Source: a virus. From it: a stretch of 57,988 nucleotides of DNA. The position numbers were made by a program, and so were the translations under genes. Shown piece after piece: positions 2,747 to 35,772 of this stretch (the stretch's first letter is position 1; each line of letters opens with the position of its first letter). The stretch lies in the IMG/VR virus record IMGVR_UViG_3300031965_000033, positions 1-57,988 of that record; one strand, written 5' to 3'. The notes below the pieces were generated by a model. It was not told the DNA's origin and did not search any database. It saw only the letters and a list, made by a program, of their open reading frames with translations.

Positions 2747-2935
2747 ATGAGATTGCGTTTCCTGATTAAACTGCAATTCGACAATGTTCCGCCCGAGAAG
2801 GAATTGGACTACCGCGTGACGATCAGCAAGGGTATGACTGATCTGATCCAGTCAATTCAGCCCGAGTATTTTCATTACAAACTCACAGACGTCAGCGATA
2901 CGGTCTATCTCGACCCAATTGAAGTCGAGGTGTGA
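2747..2935 (+). CDS. Hypothetical protein
   Basis: 62-aa ORF with GGAGG directly upstream of the ATG. Visibly AT-richer than the genome. No motif recognised. Confidence 0.5.
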   Translation: MRLRFLIKLQFDNVPPEKELDYRVTISKGMTDLIQSIQPEYFHYKLTDVSDTVYLDPIEVEV

Positions 2936-2936
2936 G

Positions 2937-3011
2937 ATGTCCATCGAACGAGCGATCGCAATTGCCATCATCATCGTCGCGCTCGTGTGGGCCGCGACCC
3001 GGCTTACCTAA
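2937..3011 (+). CDS. Possible 24-aa hydrophobic peptide
   Basis: ATG 2937 after GAGGTG. Product MSIERAIAIAIIIVALVWAATRLT is a single TM-like helix. Too short to be sure. Confidence 0.25.
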   Translation: MSIERAIAIAIIIVALVWAATRLT

Positions 3012-3021
3012 AGGAGGAGGT

Positions 3022-3306
3022 ATGAACAAGATTTCGCCAAGCCAAGAACCGATTGGGATAAGCACCATCGCGGTCATCGTCTCGTGGCTCGGTGGCCGGT
3101 ACGCGCTCGACCTGGACACGGCAACGGCGTCCGCTGTATCGGTGGTCGTGCTTGTGGTCGCTCAATGGTTGGCGCGTCGGTTCAGCACGCCGGTCGGCAA
3201 GGCTGAGAATGCCGTCGCAACCGCACTCCAGACCGAGCCAACGATCGCGACGGTGGCCGGGTCGGACGTGCAGAGCAAAGAGATATTGGCAACGAGCAAG
3301 GCGTAG
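3022..3306 (+). CDS. Small membrane protein (two predicted TM helices; holin-like by architecture)
   Basis: ATG 3022 follows a strong AAGGAGGAGG. Hydrophobic stretches IGISTIAVIVSWLGG and AVSVVVLVVAQWLA. The ORF opens at 2932. Confidence 0.6.
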   Translation: MNKISPSQEPIGISTIAVIVSWLGGRYALDLDTATASAVSVVVLVVAQWLARRFSTPVGKAENAVATALQTEPTIATVAGSDVQSKEILATSKA

Positions 3307-3311
3307 AATAC

Positions 3312-3402
3312 CCATATCGCCTGATCGTCTAATGGTGAGGACACCTTGCCCGAAGTATCCTAGGCGGGTGAGGAGGCGCGGGTTCGATTCCTGCAATATG
3401 GC
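3312..3402 (+). ncRNA. tRNA-like element 1 (non-canonical; aberrant or degenerate tRNA)
   Basis: Canonical T-arm gcggg-ttcgatt-cctgc (3378-3394). Canonical D-arm gtct-aatggtga-ggac (3327-3342) preceded by TC. 4-nt variable loop. However, the anticodon arm is a 9-bp stem (3344-3352/3365-3373) with a 12-nt loop, and the acceptor halves do not pair in register. Confidence 0.45.
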
Positions 3403-3414
3403 GCACCGGAGGGG

Positions 3415-3624
3415 ATGATGAGAACTCAAACCGAAAAAAGGTTCTGCTCAATCACGCGCGAGTCGTGCGAGAAGTTAGCGAGAGAACTGTATGCACAGGA
3501 CCACCCTGACGATGGTCCATTCTTCCTTGGATTCACCGATCATTGGGACGAGTACTTCAACCGAGTCTATGCATTCGACGAGGCGATGCGAGCGCTCGGA
3601 TTCACACTCGTTCGGTCAGCCTAA
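3415..3624 (+). CDS. Hypothetical protein (69 aa)
   Basis: GGAGGGG lies upstream of the ATG. Composition is balanced and protein-like. Bracketed by the 13-nt direct repeat atggcgcaccgga (3398-3410 and 3634-3646). Confidence 0.6.
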   Translation: MMRTQTEKRFCSITRESCEKLARELYAQDHPDDGPFFLGFTDHWDEYFNRVYAFDEAMRALGFTLVRSA

Positions 3625-3646
3625 CCCCGCGCGATGGCGCACCGGA

Positions 3647-3665
3647 CGTGCTATGCTGACGGCAC
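3647..3665 (+). promoter_or_regulatory. 19-nt repeat copy 1 (cgtgctatgctgacggcac), extended -10-like TGcTATGCT
   Basis: Perfect 19-mer repeated at 3946-3964, each at the head of an ORF-free unit that ends in an intrinsic terminator. No convincing -35. Confidence 0.35.
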
Positions 3666-3945
3666 ATAGATCGGTGGAGCAACCCCAGACACAGGGCCAC
3701 CGGGTAGTACCACACGGCTCCTGTGGTATGTAGCGGAGCCATTTACTTGGTCACGACGGGAAACAGGTTGGCCTCTGGGCGCAACGGTCGAACAGACAAG
3801 AACCGTAGGCCACGATGAAGTAGTCGCGTAACGATGAGAGGGCGCGACGAAAAAGCACCTAGCCCGTATGCTGAGGTACCTGCTGTAATGCATGTTTCGT
3901 GACTAAGACGAGAATGGCGGGGGCACACACGCTCTCGCCGTTTTT
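3666..3945 (+). ncRNA. Structured ncRNA (~280 nt), family unknown
   Basis: No credible ORF. H-type pseudoknot at 3710-3740 (ccaca/tgtgg interleaved with ggctcc/ggagcc). Hairpins at 3672-3702, 3768-3812 and 3823-3848. Long-range 7-bp helix 3750-3756/3897-3903. Ends in the terminator 3916-3945. Confidence 0.5.
3916..3945 (+). terminator. Intrinsic terminator
   Basis: ggcgggggc-acacac-gctctcgcc (9 bp including 2 G-U) followed by gTTTTT. Confidence 0.7.
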
Positions 3946-3964
3946 CGTGCTATGCTGACGGCAC
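3946..3964 (+). promoter_or_regulatory. 19-nt repeat copy 2 (cgtgctatgctgacggcac), extended -10-like
   Basis: Identical to 3647-3665. Starts right after the T-tract of the preceding terminator. Confidence 0.35.
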
Positions 3965-4084
3965 CACGATCATGAACGTGGGAGATAACTCACGCAAGCG
4001 GAGAGGTGCCTTGGCGTATTCACCTGGTTCGATTCCAGGCCTTGCGTGACACATCGATTGAGCCGTCCTCCGGGGCGGCTTTTT
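3965..4084 (+). ncRNA. Short ncRNA carrying tRNA-like element 2 (acceptor/T-arm minihelix, 3990..4049)
   Basis: Perfect T-arm cctgg-ttcgatt-ccagg (4023-4039) enclosed by a perfect 9-bp stem tcacgcaag/cttgcgtga (3990-3998/4041-4049). Only 24 nt stand in place of the D and anticodon arms, and this segment aligns with part of element 1. Ends in the terminator. Confidence 0.5.
4061..4084 (+). terminator. Intrinsic terminator
   Basis: agccgtcc-tccg-ggggcggct, an 8-bp stem running into TTTTT. Confidence 0.75.
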
Positions 4085-4190
4085 CGTACACGTTGTTTCT
4101 GTGTGCATCTTCGGGAGTCTGCCGTCACAAGCAACGTATCGGCTCGACACGCGGGCGGGTGGGGCGCTACGATTGCGGGCGGAGGTGACG

Positions 4191-4706
4191 ATGGCAAAGG
4201 TTGAGGTCGACACAGAATATCTCTCGAACCTACGCGCTCTGGCAATTGGGATTGAGTGCTCAGACGAAGAAGTCGTCAAGCAACTCGACGGGTCCAACAT
4301 CGAATACATCATGGCGGCGATCGCCAAGAGCAACGATGAGGTTCACCCGATCGACCGAATCACCAAATTTGAGCAGGTCCCCGAACTTGTCGGAGTGGTG
4401 ACCGACGAACAATACGAGTCAATTTCGGTGGCAATGTCCGTGCTCTACGACAGAAGAAATAAGTACCTGAAGGCGATCAACGCAATTGATGCGTGGTCAG
4501 GGAGCCATGAACAAGGCGAAGTGTGGAATGTCCTACAAAACAGGCTAGCGACAACCATCGTCTGTCTGAATACGTTGCGGAGCATTCTGCACGAACGGGC
4601 GACCCCTGATTATTGTCGTTCTCATCCAGAAGAGTGTGCCAATACAAACGAGACGATGAAATCGCTTAGATTGCATTGGGACAAAGAAGCGGCCGGAGTG
4701 GCCTAA
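4191..4706 (+). CDS. Hypothetical protein (lysogeny-module cargo)
   Basis: ATG 4191 after GGAGGTGACG (the ORF opens at 4101). Convergent with the integrase and overlaps it by 4 bp. No motif recognised. Confidence 0.65.
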   Translation: MAKVEVDTEYLSNLRALAIGIECSDEEVVKQLDGSNIEYIMAAIAKSNDEVHPIDRITKFEQVPELVGVVTDEQYESISVAMSVLYDRRNKYLKAINAIDAWSGSHEQGEVWNVLQNRLATTIVCLNTLRSILHERATPDYCRSHPEECANTNETMKSLRLHWDKEAAGVA

Positions 4707-6232
4707 CGAAACCCTTTACCGCCCCTCGGCACAGCAATAACCACCCCCGGCAGATGCGGCGCAACCTCGGGCAGATAAACCACCCTGACCCCATGCTCAC
4801 TGACATAGACGGTCCCGAGCGTCGCCAACAACGTCCGCAACCGATCCCCGGACGTCTCGGCAATGACCTCGGTCATCGTCGACAACTGCTGTGACATCTG
4901 CTCGATCGCCGCCAGCGATTGCGGTTTCGGCAAAGCAGCGACGGCCTCCGCGTGCTCCCGTTCAGCGGTGGCCAGCAGCTCGTCTTCCACATCCATCACA
5001 TCGCCGGGAAGTTTGCCGACGGCATAACGACTACTCATACGCTGCCACCGCGCCTGTGCGTCGCTGAGGCGCTTGTCGAGCCGTGCACGGTGTTTGACTA
5101 CTGACGTGCCACCACTTCGCTCCTGGGCGATTGTGAGGGCTTCAGCGGGTGTTCTCACACCGGCGAAGTCGGCAACGAGACACCGCCGTACCGCGGTCTC
5201 GAGCAACTGCCCGCCGATGATCTTCCTAGGCTCGGTGCAATGGACGGTCATCGTCTTACCCAGACCCCGGCAGACGAACATTCCGCCGCTGCCCTTGGAA
5301 TAGGATTGCCAGTACATGCGTTGCCCGCAGACGTGCGTGACGTAGCCCTCCAACCAAGAGTCGATCTGGTTTCGGCGGATTACGGGAGCGCGGCTAAGTT
5401 TGGCCTGCACGCGGTCGAACAGGTCACGGGGCACGATCTGCCATGCGTCGTTGTGTGCGACAACCTGACCGTGATGCGCGATGTCGCCGGTGTAGATCGG
5501 AGATTGGAGCATCGCGCGAACGGTTGAGCGTTCCCACTGCCCGCCACGGGGACCGGGACCGAGCGCGGCCATCGATTCGGCCAGCGTGTGGATGGATTCG
5601 CCGGCGTCGAACCGCGTGAACAGATCGAGGATGATCGCGGCGCCGTCGGGGTCGATCAGCGGTTCGCCGGTTTGGCGTTCGTAGCTGGTGCCGTTGGCGC
5701 GGTGAATGGTGATCGTGTGGGGTCGTCTAAACCCGGTAGGCGTTGGGCCCGTGGGGAATCCACCGTCACGGGCTCTTCTCGCAAAGGCGTTCTTGAGATG
5801 CGCGGACGTTTGGCGTGTCGCGTTCTCATTCATCAAGCCGTAGATGCCGCGGATGAACGGATCGTCGATCCCGCCCTCGGTGTCACTGACGATGCGCCCG
5901 ACGCCCGCGCGTTCGATCTCGCGGCAGATCATGAGTTGCAGGATCAGATCACGGGCGAGGCGAGAGAGCGCGAAGAGCCAGACGATATCGACCCGTTGGC
6001 TCTTGACGGCATCAAGCAGCGTCTTGATGCCTGGGCGGTCGGCGTCCGCTCCCCGCAGATCGTGATCGGTGATGACCTGGGCCACGGTGCCACCGATGGA
6101 CGCGACCCACGCTTTGCCGCGCTCTTCTTGCGAGCGGAGCGACAGGCTGGTCTTCGCGTCTTCGCCTGGTCTTTGCTCTGACTGCCTTGCATAGATCACG
6201 ACACGCGGCGCTGACCCGTTGGCATCTAGCAT
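4703..6232 (-). CDS. int: Large serine recombinase (integrase)
   Basis: N-terminal resolvase-type catalytic domain (VVIYARQSEQ..., LFALSRLARD). 509 aa, with a Cys-containing zinc-ribbon-like region and a C-terminal coiled-coil-like tail, typical of large serine integrases. Confidence 0.9.
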   Translation of the reverse strand: MLDANGSAPRVVIYARQSEQRPGEDAKTSLSLRSQEERGKAWVASIGGTVAQVITDHDLRGADADRPGIKTLLDAVKSQRVDIVWLFALSRLARDLILQLMICREIERAGVGRIVSDTEGGIDDPFIRGIYGLMNENATRQTSAHLKNAFARRARDGGFPTGPTPTGFRRPHTITIHRANGTSYERQTGEPLIDPDGAAIILDLFTRFDAGESIHTLAESMAALGPGPRGGQWERSTVRAMLQSPIYTGDIAHHGQVVAHNDAWQIVPRDLFDRVQAKLSRAPVIRRNQIDSWLEGYVTHVCGQRMYWQSYSKGSGGMFVCRGLGKTMTVHCTEPRKIIGGQLLETAVRRCLVADFAGVRTPAEALTIAQERSGGTSVVKHRARLDKRLSDAQARWQRMSSRYAVGKLPGDVMDVEDELLATAEREHAEAVAALPKPQSLAAIEQMSQQLSTMTEVIAETSGDRLRTLLATLGTVYVSEHGVRVVYLPEVAPHLPGVVIAVPRGGKGFR

Positions 6233-6261: not shown

Positions 6262-7509
6262 ATGAGTACACGCATCCTCATTGGCGACGTTCGTGAGCAA
6301 CTTGCAACGCTGCCCGATCAGTCGGTTCAATGCTGTGTGACCTCCCCGCCGTACTACGGACTGCGTGATTACGGTGTTCCCGGCCAACTCGGACTAGAGC
6401 CGACACTTGCGGAATACATCGCCACGATGGTTGAGGTGTTCCGAGACGTGCGACGCGTGCTGCGAGACGACGGTACGCTCTGGCTCAACATCGGGGATTC
6501 GTACAACGCCGGTACGTCGGCAGGTCGAAAGCCGAGCGCCAACGTGGAGCACGGATATTGGGGAAACGGCGGCTCGATGGGTGATCGTCGTGTCAAGGAT
6601 GTGACGACCAAAACCAAGGACCTGATGATGGTCCCGGCGCGTCTGGCGATTGCGCTGCAAGACGATGGTTGGTATCTCCGCTCGGACATTATTTGGGCGA
6701 AACCAAACCCGATGCCCGAGAGCGTGACGGATCGCCCGACATCGAGCCACGAGCACATCTTCCTGCTGACCAAGAGTCGCACCTATTTCTACGATGCTGA
6801 TGCGGTTCGGTCGCCACTTGCTGAATCGTCGATCTCTCGACTGTCGCAGAACATCGAATTGCAGATCGGTTCGGAACGGGCGAACGGTGGTGCGAAGACC
6901 AACGGCACAATGAAAGCCGTCGGCGGCCGGCAATGGTGGAACGAAACTAAAGGCCCGGACTACATGACCGCTAGAGACGGTCGTAACGACGGCGGGAAGA
7001 TCAAAGGTGGCAAGAATCCAGACGATCATATGCTCGGTGCCAATGTCCGCAACGTCTGGAACATCGCCACGATGCCGTATGCTGAGGCGCATTTCGCCAC
7101 ATTCCCACCAGAGATACCGCGACGGTGCATCAAGGCAGGATCATCTGAAAAGGGATGCTGCGCGTCCTGTGGCGCTCCATATCGACGATCCACCAATGTC
7201 ACGTACGAAAACCCCGGAAACCGAACAACGAACGGATCGCGTTCACTAGAACAGCGACACGAGACGGCAGGGTTCGCGGTCAGGTTAGAGAAGCGAGTCG
7301 AGACAACCGGCTGGTCGGCGTCGTGCGAATGCGAGGCGGATATCTCGCCGTGTGTCGTGCTCGATCCGTTTCTTGGCAGCGGTACGACGCTGCTGGTTGC
7401 CGACCAACTAGACCGCGACGGCATCGGAATCGAACTGAATCCGGCGTACGCGGAACTTGCCCGGTTACGCATCTACAATGACGCCCCGCTCTTTGCCAAC
7501 ATCGCCTAA
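6262..7509 (+). CDS. DNA methyltransferase (N4-cytosine or N6-adenine, beta-class order)
   Basis: Motif IV TSPPYYGL near the N-terminus and motif I VLDPFLGSGTT near the C-terminus. No cognate nuclease adjacent. Confidence 0.9.
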   Translation: MSTRILIGDVREQLATLPDQSVQCCVTSPPYYGLRDYGVPGQLGLEPTLAEYIATMVEVFRDVRRVLRDDGTLWLNIGDSYNAGTSAGRKPSANVEHGYWGNGGSMGDRRVKDVTTKTKDLMMVPARLAIALQDDGWYLRSDIIWAKPNPMPESVTDRPTSSHEHIFLLTKSRTYFYDADAVRSPLAESSISRLSQNIELQIGSERANGGAKTNGTMKAVGGRQWWNETKGPDYMTARDGRNDGGKIKGGKNPDDHMLGANVRNVWNIATMPYAEAHFATFPPEIPRRCIKAGSSEKGCCASCGAPYRRSTNVTYENPGNRTTNGSRSLEQRHETAGFAVRLEKRVETTGWSASCECEADISPCVVLDPFLGSGTTLLVADQLDRDGIGIELNPAYAELARLRIYNDAPLFANIA

Positions 7510-8791: not shown

Positions 8792-8976
8792 CCGGCCCAG
8801 AGTTGATCGCCCACGCCTGGCTCGAGCTTGCGGTCGGGGTATTCCAGGACAAGATCGCGGAGATGGAGCGCCGCGCCGGAGACGATACCGAGTACGCGAT
8901 GCCCGGTTCTGCCGATATCGCAGATCGCGCGGTAGGCGGGGAAGTGGACGAGATGGAGCAGGGAGAAGCAGCGTGA
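8788..8976 (+). CDS. Hypothetical protein
   Basis: GTGA overlap with the upstream gene; acidic 62-aa product. Confidence 0.5.
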   Translation: MTGPELIAHAWLELAVGVFQDKIAEMERRAGDDTEYAMPGSADIADRAVGGEVDEMEQGEAA

Positions 8977-9215
8977 CATTGATCAAACGACACCCCTTCA
9001 GTAATCAGCGCGAACTTAATACAAACGCCGCTCGTGAACGTGATAACTGGATTGAAACCGCCAATATTCACTGTAAAAACGAATTCTTCTGGCGGGGTCG
9101 ATGCAAAGAACGGTGCGCCAAAGACGGACACACAAACGTCGTGACTGGAGATGGTGCTGGGTTGTACTGCACCTGTTGCGGTGCAACGTCGGCGTTGGAA
9201 GGGGCGCTCTCATGA
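8973..9215 (+). CDS. Hypothetical protein
   Basis: GTGA overlap with the upstream gene; Cys-containing 80-aa product. Confidence 0.5.
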   Translation: MTLIKRHPFSNQRELNTNAARERDNWIETANIHCKNEFFWRGRCKERCAKDGHTNVVTGDGAGLYCTCCGATSALEGALS

Positions 9216-9688
9216 TCTCCACCAGCCACTTCGATCTCGACCACCCAGCGTTCGACCAACCCGCTCGCGGCTGGTCAGGGGATGCCACGGAGCAAGAGGC
9301 GCCGGCCGAGTTTGAGCAATGCCCCGACTGCATTGGAGTCGGCGAGGTCTACGCAGGATACGAGGATCAATTCCGAGTATGCGATCGCTGTCACGGGAAC
9401 GGATATCTGTCTGTGGCAGACGAGCCGGACGAGTTCGAGCGAGCGCAGTGGTTCGTTACTGACTCTGGTTCGCTTTGTATCCATTGCCCGTGCGGTGGAA
9501 ACACCGGCGACTACGACATCTGCGCTGGCTGCGGCCGGCAATGGGACATCCAAGTCATCGTTACAGAGATCACCAATGTCAAGGAGTTTGAGTCGGAACC
9601 TCGGGACGCGAGCGGTCGGGTGTATTGCCCAGACTGCATGGAGTTCGACGGTAATCATGCCGAATGGTGCATGCCGGGAGAGAGGTAG
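9212..9688 (+). CDS. Cys-rich zinc-finger protein (CxxCxGxG motifs)
   Basis: ATGA overlap (the ORF opens at 9101). Motifs CPDCIGVG and CDRCHGNG, plus further CxxC pairs. Confidence 0.65.
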   Translation: MISTSHFDLDHPAFDQPARGWSGDATEQEAPAEFEQCPDCIGVGEVYAGYEDQFRVCDRCHGNGYLSVADEPDEFERAQWFVTDSGSLCIHCPCGGNTGDYDICAGCGRQWDIQVIVTEITNVKEFESEPRDASGRVYCPDCMEFDGNHAEWCMPGER

Positions 9689-10094: not shown

Positions 10095-10238
10095 GTGTAC
10101 GACGACCAATACGGAGACGAGCTGAAGTACCCGCCGCACCCGGACCCTGGATTTTTGATCGGTGCTCTCAACGCGGTCCTGTTCGCCTTCGCGCTCATCG
10201 GCATCGTGATCCTCATCGTCAATTTCCTTGTCTCATGA
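10095..10238 (+). CDS. Small membrane protein (47 aa)
   Basis: GTG 10095 after GGAGGGGAG. C-terminal TM helix FLIGALNAVLFAFALIGIVILIVNFLV. The stop overlaps the next gene (ATGA). Confidence 0.45.
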   Translation: MYDDQYGDELKYPPHPDPGFLIGALNAVLFAFALIGIVILIVNFLVS

Positions 10239-10969
10239 GCACACCTGTGAAGTTCTACGAACGTGACGGGATCACGATCTACCACGGCGATGCGAGAGAC
10301 ATTCTGCCCACGATTGCGCCGGGTTCGGTGGACTTAGTGCTGACCGATCCGCCGTACCAGAGCCTTGACGTCGAAGTGACGGTCGGCACCACTACGCGGC
10401 TAGTTGGTCTCGACCAACTAGCCGGTAAGCGATTGGCCGCACTCGGAGGGCGAGCGTGGTTTGAGACGTTGCCAGCCGCCGACATCATTGCGGCTATCCA
10501 GTTTGGGCAATCGCTTCTCAAGCCAACAGGGGCCACGTATGTCTTTGCAGATGTAAAGAGCGGGCTGGAACTTTTCCCACTCTTGGATCCAGCGAATGTC
10601 ATCGTATGGGACAAACTTAAACTCGGCATGGGGTACAACTGGCGACGAATGCACGAATGGATCGCATTCATACCCCAGCCGGACCACAAACTGAGAAACC
10701 AAGGGCGCGGCGACATCATCCGGTGCAACGGCGTCGGTGAAAAGTCGCACCCGACTGAGAAGCCTACCGGCGTGCTCCAGTCTCTCATTCTCAATTCAAC
10801 CGACAAAGACGACCTCATTATCAATCCCTTCATGGGCACCGGCTCCTTATTGGTTGCGGCGTCCAAACTCGGACGCCGCGCTATCGGTATCGACATCAAC
10901 GAGGACTACTGCATCACGGCCTACAAACGCCTGCAACAAACGGCGATGAATCTAGAGATACCAGCATGA
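10235..10969 (+). CDS. DNA N6-adenine-type methyltransferase (DPPY, beta-class order)
   Basis: LVLTDPPYQS (motif IV), HPTEKP, and INPFMGTGS...GIDIN (motif I). Confidence 0.9.
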   Translation: MSTPVKFYERDGITIYHGDARDILPTIAPGSVDLVLTDPPYQSLDVEVTVGTTTRLVGLDQLAGKRLAALGGRAWFETLPAADIIAAIQFGQSLLKPTGATYVFADVKSGLELFPLLDPANVIVWDKLKLGMGYNWRRMHEWIAFIPQPDHKLRNQGRGDIIRCNGVGEKSHPTEKPTGVLQSLILNSTDKDDLIINPFMGTGSLLVAASKLGRRAIGIDINEDYCITAYKRLQQTAMNLEIPA

Positions 10970-21521: not shown

Positions 21522-22163
21522 GTGGCTCAAACCGTGCAACCGGATATCTGGAGATCACGCATCGTCGGATACGCTGACGTGCCGCCCGATCAACTCCTCG
21601 CGAACGAAAACAACTTCCGGCGCCATCCCCGTACCCAGCAAGACGCGCTCTCTGGCCTCATCGGTGAAATCGGATATATCGATCCGGTGCTCGTTCAGTC
21701 CGGCACCGATCGCGTCATTGACGGTCACCTTCGCGTTGAGCTTGCGCTGCGCACCGGGCAGCCGACCGTGCCCGTGCAGTACGTCGATCTGACCGACGAC
21801 GAGGCGAACCTTGCATTAGCATCGTTCGATCCGATAAGTGCGATGGCCTACCACGACGCCGCGCAACTCAAGGCGCTGCTCGACGAGGTGTCAACGTCCG
21901 ACGCGGCGGTCATGGCGATGTTGAGTGAACTGGCCGAGGATGCGGGCGTGATTCCGCCGGATTGGTCCGACGCGATGGGTGGCTTACCCGACGGCGACAA
22001 ATCTCCGTTTGAGCAGATGACGTTCACGGTATCGACCAAACAGGCTGAGGTCGTTCGTGAGGCATTGTCACAAGCCAAGGGTGGGGGATTCGATACCGAC
22101 AATGAGAACAGCAACGGCAACGCCTTAGCGCGGATTGCGGAGGCGTACCTCGATGCCGCATGA
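21522..22163 (+). CDS. ParB-like nuclease domain protein
   Basis: ANENNFRRHP..Q..L..I..IGYIDPVLV..DRVIDGHLRVELA pattern of the ParB/Srx N-terminal domain. GTG 21522 lies 7 nt after GGTGGAGG (the ORF opens at 21477). Confidence 0.75.
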   Translation: MAQTVQPDIWRSRIVGYADVPPDQLLANENNFRRHPRTQQDALSGLIGEIGYIDPVLVQSGTDRVIDGHLRVELALRTGQPTVPVQYVDLTDDEANLALASFDPISAMAYHDAAQLKALLDEVSTSDAAVMAMLSELAEDAGVIPPDWSDAMGGLPDGDKSPFEQMTFTVSTKQAEVVREALSQAKGGGFDTDNENSNGNALARIAEAYLDAA

Positions 22164-22986
22164 CCTGACCGCCAAAGACATTGTGCTTCGACCGATTGAC
22201 TCGAAGACCGCGAATGCATTGGTCCGGCGTGTCCACTATTCAGGCAAGGTGGTCAACAATTCGCAACTGCATATCGGCGTCTACCTCGGCGGCAAACTTG
22301 AGGGCGTGATGCAGTTCGGGCCGTCGTTGGATAAGCGCAAGTTACAGGGGTTAGTAGCGGGAACCGGGTGGAACGAATTCATCGAATTGAACCGGATGGC
22401 GTTCACCGATGCGCTACCCCGCAATAGCGAATCACGGGCGCTATCGATCGCCATGAAGTTGCTTCACAAACATGCCCCGCATGTGAAATGGGTCGTTACG
22501 TTTGCCGATGGCGCTCAGTGTGGGGATGGGACGATTTATCGAGCGGCGGGTTTTGTTCTGACGAGTATCAAAGTCAACGATCAGGTTTGGACTGATGGCG
22601 GTACGACTGACAGTCGTACCGCCATCACTGCGTTAGGACATAAAGGCGCGTCGGCACAACGTCGGACGATCAGCCGAATGACGGTAACCAAGGGGCAACA
22701 CATAACCGAAACCGGCGCTTCGTCCATGAAGCAATATGCAGATGCCGGATTCGCGCCGCTAAAGGGCCATCAACTCCGCTATGTCTACTTCCTCGACCCG
22801 TCGTGCCGGGAACGATTGACCGTGCCGATTCTGCCGTTTAGTGAAATCGAACGACGGGGCGCGGGTATGTATCGCGGTGAACCACGCGCCGGAAGTGTTG
22901 ACAGCGACACGCTCGGAGTCCATCCGGGAGAGGGCAGTGCGATCCTGACCTCGGCGCTCCACGATCACGCGATGGCGGCGGACTGA
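22153..22986 (+). CDS. Mom-like GNAT-fold DNA-modification protein (putative)
   Basis: VHYSGKV...IGVY..G.L.GVMQFGP...ELNRMAF.D.LPRNSESRALS...VVTFAD...GDGTIYRAAGF matches my recollection of the Mom/acyltransferase-like phage family. Overlaps the ParB-like gene by 11 nt. Confidence 0.55.
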   Translation: MPHDLTAKDIVLRPIDSKTANALVRRVHYSGKVVNNSQLHIGVYLGGKLEGVMQFGPSLDKRKLQGLVAGTGWNEFIELNRMAFTDALPRNSESRALSIAMKLLHKHAPHVKWVVTFADGAQCGDGTIYRAAGFVLTSIKVNDQVWTDGGTTDSRTAITALGHKGASAQRRTISRMTVTKGQHITETGASSMKQYADAGFAPLKGHQLRYVYFLDPSCRERLTVPILPFSEIERRGAGMYRGEPRAGSVDSDTLGVHPGEGSAILTSALHDHAMAAD

Positions 22987-34053: not shown

Positions 34054-35772
34054 ATGTCCCGGACCTGGACCTCATTCCAATTCGCCAAACCCGATAAGCG
34101 ATCATCGGCCATGGTTGGCCTCTGGCTTGCGCCCGAACCAGCCGCAACGCTCGCGCTCGATGGTCAACTCCCACCCGACCAACTGCATATCACGCTCGCG
34201 ATCCTGGAGGCCGATGCCGCCAGCCTGAGCGACGTGCAGCAGGCGCGTTTCCTGACCACGGTTGACGATCTCGCGGCTTGGACCGCGCCGCTTTCCGGCG
34301 ATGTCGCGGGCATGGGCCGGTTCTACGCGTCGGACTCGAGCGACGGTCAAGACGTGCTCTTTGCGATTCCGAATGTCGAGGGCTTGGGAAAACTCCGGCA
34401 CCGGCTGTGCGAGAACCTTGGGTACGCGCAACTCCCGCACAAAGACGACTTCGAGTTCTTTCCGCACATTAGCCTCGCCTACGTCGCGTCCGGCGCCGAA
34501 TCGCCCGTGGCTGCCGTCGCAACGACTCCGCTCAGTTTCACCGCCCTGACCGTCGTCATGGGCGATCGGATGACCACCGTCCCCCTTCGTGGTTGGTCCG
34601 ACGGCGCGATGTCCTACGCCGATGCCGGGATCATCGGCGAGGGGCACCGCCTGTTCACCGAACTGCAAACCTACATCGAACCGCCTGAATGGCTTCCGCT
34701 CATGCCGGCCCCCGGCAACTACGTGCACCGCGACTACGGCACGGTCGATTTACCGGCGGATCGGATCGAACGGCTTGTGGCCAGCATCAATAACGGGGTC
34801 TATCAAAAGTCGATTCCGATCGATGTCTCGCACGACAAGGACGATCTCGACCTAAACGGCGGGCTCGGCTGGTTCGGCACTGCCCGCATCAATGCCGACG
34901 GCTCCGCCGATGTGCGGGTCGAATGGACGCCGCGTGGCACGGAAGCGCTGCTGGCGGATCGGTTCCGGTACGTCAGTCCGGAGTTCGCGCTCTCATGGAA
35001 AGACGAGGACGGTGTTGATCACGACGATGTCGTGCTTGGCCTGGCCCTCTGCACGAATCCCTTTTTCAAGGACCTCGCGATCGATCGTGCGCTCGTTGCG
35101 TCCGAGCGCGGCGCGTCCGTTTCCACGCTTTCTCTTGTTCATCAGTTTGGCGAGCCGGTGCGGTTCGTCGCGAAGGATCAGGCGCACCGCGCGCCGGAGG
35201 AAACACTCATGGCAGACGAGAAGCCAGCAGTTGCCCCCACGGCTCAGCAGTTCACGGAGTTGAGCCAATCGTTCAGCGATCTCAAGACGAGTTTCGGCGA
35301 GTTGCAGCAGAAGTTCACCGAGTCGGAGACGGCGCGCGAGACTGAGAAGACCGCACGCGAAGCCGCCGAAGCCAAAGCGACCGAAGCCGATGCCCGCATC
35401 CAGGCGATGGAAGACGCGAAGCGGCGCAAGGAATTCACGGACGAGGTTCTCGGTAAGTCGGACGCGAGCGGGATTCGCTGGTTCGGCAACGCCGATAACC
35501 ACATCAAAATCCTTGAATCCTTTACCGACGATGCGCTCCGGCAGACCTACATCGACGAACAACGTGAGAACGCGAAGCGGATGACGGCGGCCGCGATCAA
35601 GCCGGAGATTGGCAGTGATGCGCCGGGAGAGACCGACATTCAGTCTCAGTACAACGCCGAGGTCACGCGGGTAATGACGGAATCGAAGGTGTCCAAGGCG
35701 CAGGCAACCCGCACGGTGTTGCGTGAGAACCGGGAGCTCGCGGCCGCGGTTGCGGCTGGAAAGGTCAAGTAA
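34054..35772 (+). CDS. Fusion protein: 2H phosphoesterase (LigT-like) domain + Mu gpI-type prohead protease + coiled-coil scaffold
   Basis: Two HxT/S motifs (LHITLAIL, PHISLAYV) about 100 aa apart. Then IPIDVSHDKDD..GWFGTARINADGSADVRVEWTPRG..FRYVSPEF (Mu I-like). Then a long Glu/Lys/Ala-rich helical region. The start may be 34111. Confidence 0.8.
   Translation: MSRTWTSFQFAKPDKRSSAMVGLWLAPEPAATLALDGQLPPDQLHITLAILEADAASLSDVQQARFLTTVDDLAAWTAPLSGDVAGMGRFYASDSSDGQDVLFAIPNVEGLGKLRHRLCENLGYAQLPHKDDFEFFPHISLAYVASGAESPVAAVATTPLSFTALTVVMGDRMTTVPLRGWSDGAMSYADAGIIGEGHRLFTELQTYIEPPEWLPLMPAPGNYVHRDYGTVDLPADRIERLVASINNGVYQKSIPIDVSHDKDDLDLNGGLGWFGTARINADGSADVRVEWTPRGTEALLADRFRYVSPEFALSWKDEDGVDHDDVVLGLALCTNPFFKDLAIDRALVASERGASVSTLSLVHQFGEPVRFVAKDQAHRAPEETLMADEKPAVAPTAQQFTELSQSFSDLKTSFGELQQKFTESETARETEKTAREAAEAKATEADARIQAMEDAKRRKEFTDEVLGKSDASGIRWFGNADNHIKILESFTDDALRQTYIDEQRENAKRMTAAAIKPEIGSDAPGETDIQSQYNAEVTRVMTESKVSKAQATRTVLRENRELAAAVAAGKVK

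Follow-up and report, generated by a model that had tools for sequence, protein, structure and literature searches.

We analysed a stretch of viral DNA of 57,988 nucleotides (nt) (IMG/VR record IMGVR_UViG_3300031965_000033, positions 1 to 57,988; hereafter the window), in which a two-unit RNA locus lies at positions 3647-4084 of the + strand. Both units are headed by the same promoter-like repeat, end in an intrinsic terminator and lack open reading frames (ORFs) that are conserved elsewhere. Our comparative analysis indicates that unit 1 is, in all likelihood, a genuine structured RNA gene, with a 3′ core whose fold covaries between the window and a homologous locus in a second phage. The core would thereby constitute a new covariation-supported RNA motif with two members. 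We also lean, with more reserve, towards the wider reading that the locus encodes two stand-alone, trans-acting phage RNAs, unit 1 being the founder of a new family, whereas our confidence in any specific function for either RNA is low. Under this wider reading, two independently transcribed non-coding RNA (ncRNA) genes would sit in a variable transfer RNA (tRNA)/ncRNA island, with the late lysis cassette on one side and the lysogeny module on the other.

Conserved fold of the unit 1 RNA

A search based on the lysin of the window phage yielded one homolog of unit 1, on the IMG/VR contig UViG_3300033066_000391 (locus L004). In L004, the lysin and holin genes are followed by ~500 nt free of ORFs, by a single gene that encodes a C5 methyltransferase, and by a convergent serine integrase, which places the RNA at the same position as in the window. 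The two lysins are 51% identical, and the two integrases 32%. Window positions 3744-3908 align nearly gap-free with L004 positions 2619-2779, and the entire counterpart of unit 1 in L004 spans ~2536-2812. The features of unit 1 are as follows.

3664-3945, + strand: predicted unit 1 RNA, ~282 nt, in which a variable 5′ domain precedes the conserved core and the terminator
3744-3908, + strand: conserved 165-nt core, all counted pairs of which hold in the window and in L004
3750-3756 (GTCACGA) with 3897-3903 (TCGTGAC), + strand: P1, a long-range closing stem of 7 base pairs (bp)
3757-3759 with 3864-3866, + strand: P1b, a 3-bp extension of P1
3769-3774 with 3807-3812, + strand: P2, part of the long bulged P2/P3 hairpin
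3784-3788 with 3802-3806, + strand: P3, capped by a 13-nt loop
3789-3801, + strand: apical loop of P3, 13 nt, CGAACAGACAAGA, with AACAGACAAG invariant above a covarying stem
3823-3828 with 3843-3848, + strand: P4, a hairpin with a GAUGArAGG loop
3829-3842, + strand: apical loop of P4, in which GAUGA(G/A)AGG is conserved
3868-3871 with 3890-3893, + strand: P5, a hairpin
3764-3768 (5′ junction) with 3878-3882 (P5 loop), + strand: conserved pseudoknot
3708-3740, + strand: candidate H-type pseudoknot, window-specific, with stems of 7 and 6 bp

Only those parts of the helices that share alignment columns in both sequences were counted, which gave 30 pairs. All 30 hold in the window and in L004, and 11 have changed on both sides in a compensatory way (in P5, four out of four), compared with 0-2 both-side-changed pairs in slid controls in which the partners were shifted by 1-3 columns. 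Folding of the alignment with RNAalifold gave -38.9 kcal/mol, as against -13.0 ± 3.5 kcal/mol for 500 class-preserving column shuffles (z -7.3), none of which was as good, and the covariance model (R1) returned scores of 189.6 and 179.3 bits. The blocks CACGACGGnAAACA, AACAGACAAG, CCACG, GAUGAnAGG, CCGU, GUAAU and UCGUG are invariant in the core. A preliminary description of the window, made from its letters, had proposed the 7-bp helix P1 and a compact folded RNA for unit 1. Both proposals are borne out by L004, which keeps every core helix and in which two of the seven P1 pairs covary. The terminator of unit 1 likewise keeps its position in L004 and covaries. The U-G pair in the L004 pseudoknot, together with the polarity of the terminators and their U-tracts, fixes the + strand as the relevant one. 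The motif that we propose for the family (P1 with P1b, a bulged P2/P3 hairpin with AACAGACAAG, P4 with GAUGArAGG, P5, and the pseudoknot between junction and P5 loop) is complete in the window and in L004. As judged from the alignment, the core is clearly under structural selection.

The conserved part of unit 1 is, on this comparison, the 3′ core and not the pseudoknot of the 5′ domain. The 5′ domain of the window (3664-3747) aligns weakly with L004, which has ~88 nt extra and a promoter-like site of its own (TGgTAGACT). An H-type pseudoknot had been proposed at 3710-3740. It is indeed present and even longer than proposed, with TACCACA (3708-3714) and TGTGGTA (3722-3728) interleaved with GGCTCC (3716-3721) and GGAGCC (3735-3740), but it is not conserved, as no counterpart was found in L004. 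Among shuffled sequences, ~2% yield an H-type pseudoknot with stems of at least 5 and at least 6 bp.

The same alignment bears on coding. The core consists of two halves that align without gaps but are offset by a 4-nt indel, which disrupts any shared frame. On neither strand does a frame stay open through both halves in the window and in L004. Amino-acid identities over the core are 14-52% (25-52% for the best frames), compared with nucleotide identities of 54-62%. By these measures the core reads as non-coding. A conserved small ORF, which the preliminary description had named as one finding that would speak against an RNA gene, was not found, and none explains the conservation of the core.

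If transcribed as predicted, unit 1 would give an RNA of ~280 nt whose 3′ 165 nt would fold into a closed multi-helix domain (P1/P1b, P2/P3, P4, P5 and the pseudoknot), exposing the invariant single-stranded loops AACAGACAAG and GAUGArAGG. Such an RNA, which we take to be neither an mRNA nor a cis-acting leader, would act in trans, presumably by presenting these loops to a protein or RNA partner. If it is expressed, the core offers a compact and tractable 165-nt domain with clear invariant loops to mutate (AACAGACAAG and GAUGAGAGG).

Promoter-like repeat, terminators and the tRNA-like unit 2

The 19-mer CGTGCTATGCTGACGGCAC occurs exactly twice in the window, both times on the + strand (3647-3665 and 3946-3964) and at a spacing of 299 nt. 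A third copy was not found in the window even when 3 mismatches were allowed, the chance expectation being 0.01. The repeat around the 19-mer reaches 26 nt at 88% identity by way of a common GATC. Read from the sequence, the 19-mer contains TGcTATGCT, an extended -10 element, and would cover about -17 to +2 of a TGnTAnnnT promoter. TGnTATGCT-like sites elsewhere occur at chance level, and the 19-mer has no match in IMG/VR. An operator reading of GTGC-N10-GCAC was rejected, as there are no other such sites. The features of the promoters, the terminators and unit 2 are listed here.

3647-3665, + strand: 19-mer copy 1 with the extended -10 core (TG 3649-3650, TATGCT 3652-3657); predicted start at ~A3664
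3946-3964, + strand: 19-mer copy 2 with an identical core; predicted start at ~A3963
3908-3945, + strand: intrinsic terminator of unit 1, GC core 3916-3939, U5 at 3941-3945
4056-4084, + strand: intrinsic terminator of unit 2, followed by U5
3963-4084, + strand: predicted unit 2 RNA, ~122 nt, with a 27-nt leader, the minihelix, a 10-nt trailer and the terminator
3990-4049, + strand: tRNA-like minihelix, consisting of a 9-bp acceptor-like helix (3990-3998 with 4041-4049) and a T-arm
4023-4039, + strand: T-arm of unit 2, CCUGG-UUCGAUU-CCAGG, with a 5-bp stem and a loop that fits UUCRANY
3312-3403, + strand: degenerate tRNA-like cloverleaf, directly after the holin-like gene and 250 nt upstream

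The terminator of unit 1 (3908-3950) folds at -24.8 kcal/mol (z -6.3) and that of unit 2 (4056-4088) at -19.5 kcal/mol (z -5.1), with none of 200 shuffles as good in either case. A consensus terminator scan reported neither of these hairpin-plus-U5 terminators, although both fold at z ≤ -5. Because it missed two strong terminators, its negative result should not be counted as absence. The depositor's gene calls leave 3625-4190 empty, and the mechanical ORFs at the locus are not conserved in L004. The outline first drawn for the locus, namely two consecutive ORF-free units headed by an exact 19-mer with an extended -10 and closed by clear intrinsic terminators, therefore stands. Because each has the same extended -10 core and its own terminator, both units look like stand-alone genes of the ‘moron’ type, and the unit 1 fold would occupy an accessory position of that kind. 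In prophages, ‘moron’ positions are where conversion, immunity or defence functions are usually held.

Relative to each predicted RNA start, a GATC occupies +6 to +9, and L004 has one at the aligned site. Among the products of the window phage are a protein of the Mom family and two DNA methylases of the N6/N4 type (22135-22986; 6262-7509; 10235-10969). Given the GATC near the starts and these genes, methylation-sensitive expression of both RNAs is conceivable.

Unit 2 would give an RNA of ~120 nt with a T-arm/acceptor minihelix that most likely comes from a tRNA gene of the island. The minihelix had been noticed in the preliminary description and is confirmed in the sequence: a canonical T-arm is stacked on a 9-bp helix, which is the T-arm-on-acceptor-helix arrangement of a tRNA, and a 24-nt internal segment stands in place of the D and anticodon arms. 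The layout is that of a one-gene tRNA operon, with promoter, leader, body, trailer and terminator. Default ARAGORN calls no genes at all in the window, and unit 2 has no match to the Rfam tRNA model (RF00005) even at E ≤ 10. The T-loop UCGAU (4029-4033) is complementary to AUCGA in the trailer (4053-4057), and a pseudoknot between them that masks the T-loop in the unprocessed transcript is possible, though the match may be due to chance.

In the tRNA-like element at 3312-3403 the D and T arms are canonical, but the anticodon stem measures 9 bp and closes a 12-nt loop, and the acceptor stem is shifted by 7 nt. The element scores 23.7 bits with the Rfam tRNA model, below the gathering score of 29, and ARAGORN makes no call for it. 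The sequence GGTTCGATTCC is common to this element (3381-3391) and the unit 2 minihelix; a third occurrence, on the - strand at ~39551, falls within a structural gene of the + strand and was put down to chance. In a related phage (L029; integrase 54% identical), true tRNAs of 40 and 52 bits are found at the syntenic site (8935-9005 and 9127-9183, both on the - strand). The anticodon loop of the 52-bit tRNA is abnormally short, so that ARAGORN lists it as ‘tRNA-???’ with an anticodon of 2 nt; of the other, a tRNA-Met, the contig end leaves only the 3′ part. True tRNAs at the same position thus mark the site as a tRNA/ncRNA island. Unit 2 is most likely a derivative of a tRNA gene from this island, and its perfect promoter copy, its strong terminator and the intactness of its 9-bp helix suggest that it is in use and not decaying. 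It would be a plausible substrate or decoy for tRNA enzymes such as ribonuclease P (RNase P), the CCA-adding enzyme or tRNA-targeting factors, and the promoter that unit 1 shares with this tRNA-like unit suggests a link to tRNA biology.

Alternative explanations and known RNA systems

Several other explanations of the locus were considered. A small protein gene might account for the conservation of the core: a 22-23-codon ORF starts at the conserved GATGA (window 3834), with its ATG at the same column in both sequences and a frame that stays open until close to the 3′ strand of P1 (frame +0, columns 82-165). We give this hardly any credence, as its amino-acid identity is 25% against 54% at the nucleotide level, codon position 1 is the most conserved while positions 2 and 3 are equal (counted from the alignment), no conserved Shine-Dalgarno sequence was found, and the ORF contains the fully compensated P5. 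Unit 1 could also be a cis-regulatory leader, riboswitch-like or an attenuator, with a terminator that regulates transcriptional read-through into the gene(s) downstream. The complex pseudoknotted fold, the intrinsic terminator directly after it and a co-oriented next gene in both phages fit such a leader. It is nonetheless improbable, because the terminator in the window directly precedes a second promoter and a second non-coding unit without an ORF, and because the two phages have unrelated genes downstream (ORF171 in the window, the C5 methyltransferase in L004). Furthermore, ORF171 is preceded by a promoter-like site of its own, no competing antiterminator helix that involves the 3′ strand of P1 is evident, and no riboswitch family matches. 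Somewhat less improbable, yet still unlikely in our assessment, is that unit 2, and perhaps the 5′ domain of unit 1, are debris of the tRNA island, that is, non-functional remnants which keep a promoter and a terminator. The degenerate tRNA-like element 250 nt upstream, the real tRNAs at the site in L029, the failure of unit 2 with every tRNA model and its lack of a homolog all agree with debris. But the promoter copy is perfect over 19 nt, the terminator is strong, the 9-bp helix of unit 2 is perfect and has a 5′ strand that would be lost under neutral decay, and the unit 1 core is clearly under structural selection.

Two further explanations concern the locus as a whole. In the first of these, unit 1 and unit 2 are the two pieces of a split transfer-messenger RNA (tmRNA), unit 1 being the coding piece, rich in pseudoknots, with the tag VGHDEVVA* and unit 2 the tRNA-like domain. 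Like tmRNAs, including two-piece ones, the locus has a pseudoknotted RNA of ~300 nt adjoining a T-arm/acceptor module; a stop codon lies in the P4 loop; and ARAGORN at the 80% threshold (-ps80) calls a tmRNA with this tag at 3691-4046, plus an overlapping permuted call. This explanation is largely refuted. The relaxed calls are noise, because the same settings give 39 tmRNA, 80 tRNA and 10 intron-containing tRNA calls across the 58-kb window (one of which, an ‘intron-containing tRNA-Asp’ at 3318-4047, was rejected on the same ground), whereas nothing is found by the Rfam tmRNA models or by ARAGORN at default settings. The acceptor-like helix opens with the pairs A-U, C-G and G-C and is followed by GACA, a G3:U70 pair and an ACCA end being absent, and the tag is not conserved: L004 has neither a T-arm or other tRNA-like part nor a comparable tag in the aligned frame. 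In the second, the repeats and hairpins act at the level of DNA, in integration (attP), replication or packaging. The locus does lie in the lysogeny module, and direct repeats flank both ORF69 and unit 1. Against this, RNA is indicated by the strand-specific U-G pair and by the terminators with their U-tracts, and the element is missing from phages whose integrases are closer to that of the window. The attP sites used by serine integrases are short, imperfect inverted repeats, and the covarying 165-nt multi-helix domain is unlike them. We regard a DNA-level role as very improbable, though not quite as implausible as the split tmRNA.

No known RNA family could be assigned to either unit when the locus was first described, and this still holds, since neither an Rfam covariance search nor default ARAGORN finds anything for them. 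Searches with Rfam 15 (4,227 families) at gathering and permissive thresholds gave no match common to the window and L004, and no match to tmRNA, C4/CI, YrlA, riboswitches or self-cleaving ribozymes at any threshold tried. The P4 CI RNA and the P1/P7 C4 antisense RNA (RF01695) are likewise phage-encoded, stand-alone, small structured RNAs of the immunity/lysogeny region. These RNAs are ~77 nt long, occur in phages of Proteobacteria, have tRNA-like features, are RNase P substrates and act via exposed loops. Unit 1 differs from them by its 165-nt core with a pseudoknot, and RF01695 gives no match at E ≤ 10. Phage tRNA islands are similar in position (as seen from the true tRNAs of L029), in the T-arms of unit 2 and of the element at 3312-3403, and in monocistronic layout. 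They differ in that unit 2 lacks D and anticodon arms and unit 1 lacks any tRNA features.

A type III toxin-antitoxin system of the ToxI type resembles the locus in its order of promoter, repeated RNA, terminator and then a gene of ~171 codons. The ToxI-type antitoxin was rejected, since the repeat is only the 19-26-nt promoter/leader at 299-nt spacing and ORF171 has no match to a ToxN, CptN or TenpN model, nor to any PADLOC, Pfam or PHROG toxin; moreover, L004 has a methyltransferase in the position of ORF171. A defence partner at the locus was rejected together with it. As regards Y RNA-like molecules, YrlA (RF02553) has no match in the window, and no Ro/Rsr (TROVE) protein gene is present among the ~40 window ORFs scanned against Pfam. 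No reverse transcriptase (of a retron or similar element) was found among the window ORFs scanned. A further parallel is provided by the orphan structured RNA motifs obtained by comparative genomics from phage and metagenome data (Weinberg et al. 2017, PMC5737381), with which unit 1 shares rarity, support by covariation, and a location on phage DNA near integrase and lysis genes; it lies outside Rfam 15 and has two representatives so far. In the literature we found no description of such an RNA.

The following points weigh against two stand-alone trans-acting RNAs. All structure statistics rest on two sequences, from which the structure itself was also drawn, and the unit 1 homologs number only one, L004. 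The promoter activity of both 19-mer copies, and the transcript ends, are predictions from sequence. Duplex scans for targets of the conserved loops (in the window and in 10 kb of L004) returned chance-level matches only, none of them common to both. More than 20 loci with a related lysin or integrase were searched with model R1, and none contains the RNA, even with filters off; since all of them lack it, the unit 1 RNA is dispensable. For unit 2, no homologs were found, in L004 or elsewhere, so that its status is argued from its own sequence features, and its single-sequence folding is mildly better than that of shuffles (z -1.75 to -2.7). A search for duplexes between unit 1 and unit 2 without restriction was uninformative.

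The find is modest, with two members, yet real and new. Structured RNAs of phages are far less catalogued than phage proteins, and the known ones come mostly from cultured phages of Proteobacteria and Firmicutes. A bolder version, which we think doubtful, is that unit 1 is the first of a new class of phage RNAs with a complex fold, acting as a catalyst or as a protein-binding scaffold or decoy and co-expressed with unit 2, a tRNA mimic under the identical promoter. If so, its intricacy would be like that of small ribozymes or riboswitch aptamers, and the two RNAs might subvert a host pathway of tRNA targeting or processing during lysogeny or infection.

Gene neighbourhood and distribution

The window corresponds, in rotated form, to a circular metagenomic phage contig of 58 kb (ENA ERZ27256875, k141_2628644) and has a G+C content of 59%; the phage is temperate and uncultured. 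INPHARED contains no relative of the window by DNA, nor by lysin or integrase protein, so that the lineage has no relatives among 50,697 deposited phage genomes. A Thermomicrobiales metagenome-assembled genome encodes one integrase homolog (58% identity), which provides a weak hint that the host is possibly in the Chloroflexota. The genes around the locus are listed below.

584-1990: lysin, amidase-type
1991-2740: HNH endonuclease
2932-3306: holin-like gene
3415-3624: ORF69, an ORF of 69 codons
3647-4084, + strand: the two-unit RNA locus
4191-4706: ORF171, between unit 2 and the integrase
4703-6232: large serine integrase, convergent
6262-7509: DNA methylase

The locus had been placed in the lysogeny region next to the integrase. 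It does belong to the lysogeny module, but it is not adjacent to the integrase, which is a convergent serine recombinase and is separated from it by ORF171. ORF171 and ORF69 are near-orphans without significant matches in Pfam, PHROG or PADLOC. A single homolog of ORF171, 42% identical and in a non-syntenic context, emerged from 5.8 billion protein clusters. The ORF69 cassette (3415-3624) is bracketed by an exact 13-mer direct repeat, ATGGCGCACCGGA, at 3398-3410 and 3634-3646; the second copy abuts the first 19-mer promoter, and the arrangement resembles an insertion or duplication scar.

Related loci were gathered via the neighbouring proteins ORF171, ORF69, lysin and integrase. The loci without the RNA include ones whose integrases are 54-61% identical to that of the window, and because such closer integrase relatives lack it, the RNA would have no specific functional link to integration. 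Two phages (L015 and L018) match L004 through the holin terminator and then diverge exactly at the promoter of the L004 RNA, so that the RNA is part of an exchangeable accessory/lysogeny module. It is tied neither to the lysin nor to a particular integrase. A weak BLAST match to L015, L018 and L019 was dismissed as chance; these phages diverge from L004 exactly at the RNA promoter. Exact scans of IMG/VR, JGI metagenomes and GTDB genomes with two block patterns recovered L004 and chance matches only, the chance status of the latter being confirmed with model R1. The family would appear to be rare, or else too diverged to be detected by exact patterns.

Two other observations were made in passing. 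Within the head-gene block of the window, positions 34054-35772 encode a protein of 572 amino acids that combines an N-terminal 2H phosphoesterase domain (2′-5′ RNA ligase superfamily) with a Mu-like prohead protease region, which is an unusual fusion. In a relative with a tyrosine integrase (L016), an unrelated ORF-free stretch after the lysis cassette (8925-9453) contains a repeat of ~30 nt (ACTTCCTGTTTT..CCCTCAACTGA.GTG) twice, each copy being followed by 100-190 nt and a terminator, and thus represents a second tandem small RNA-like locus at the same genomic position.

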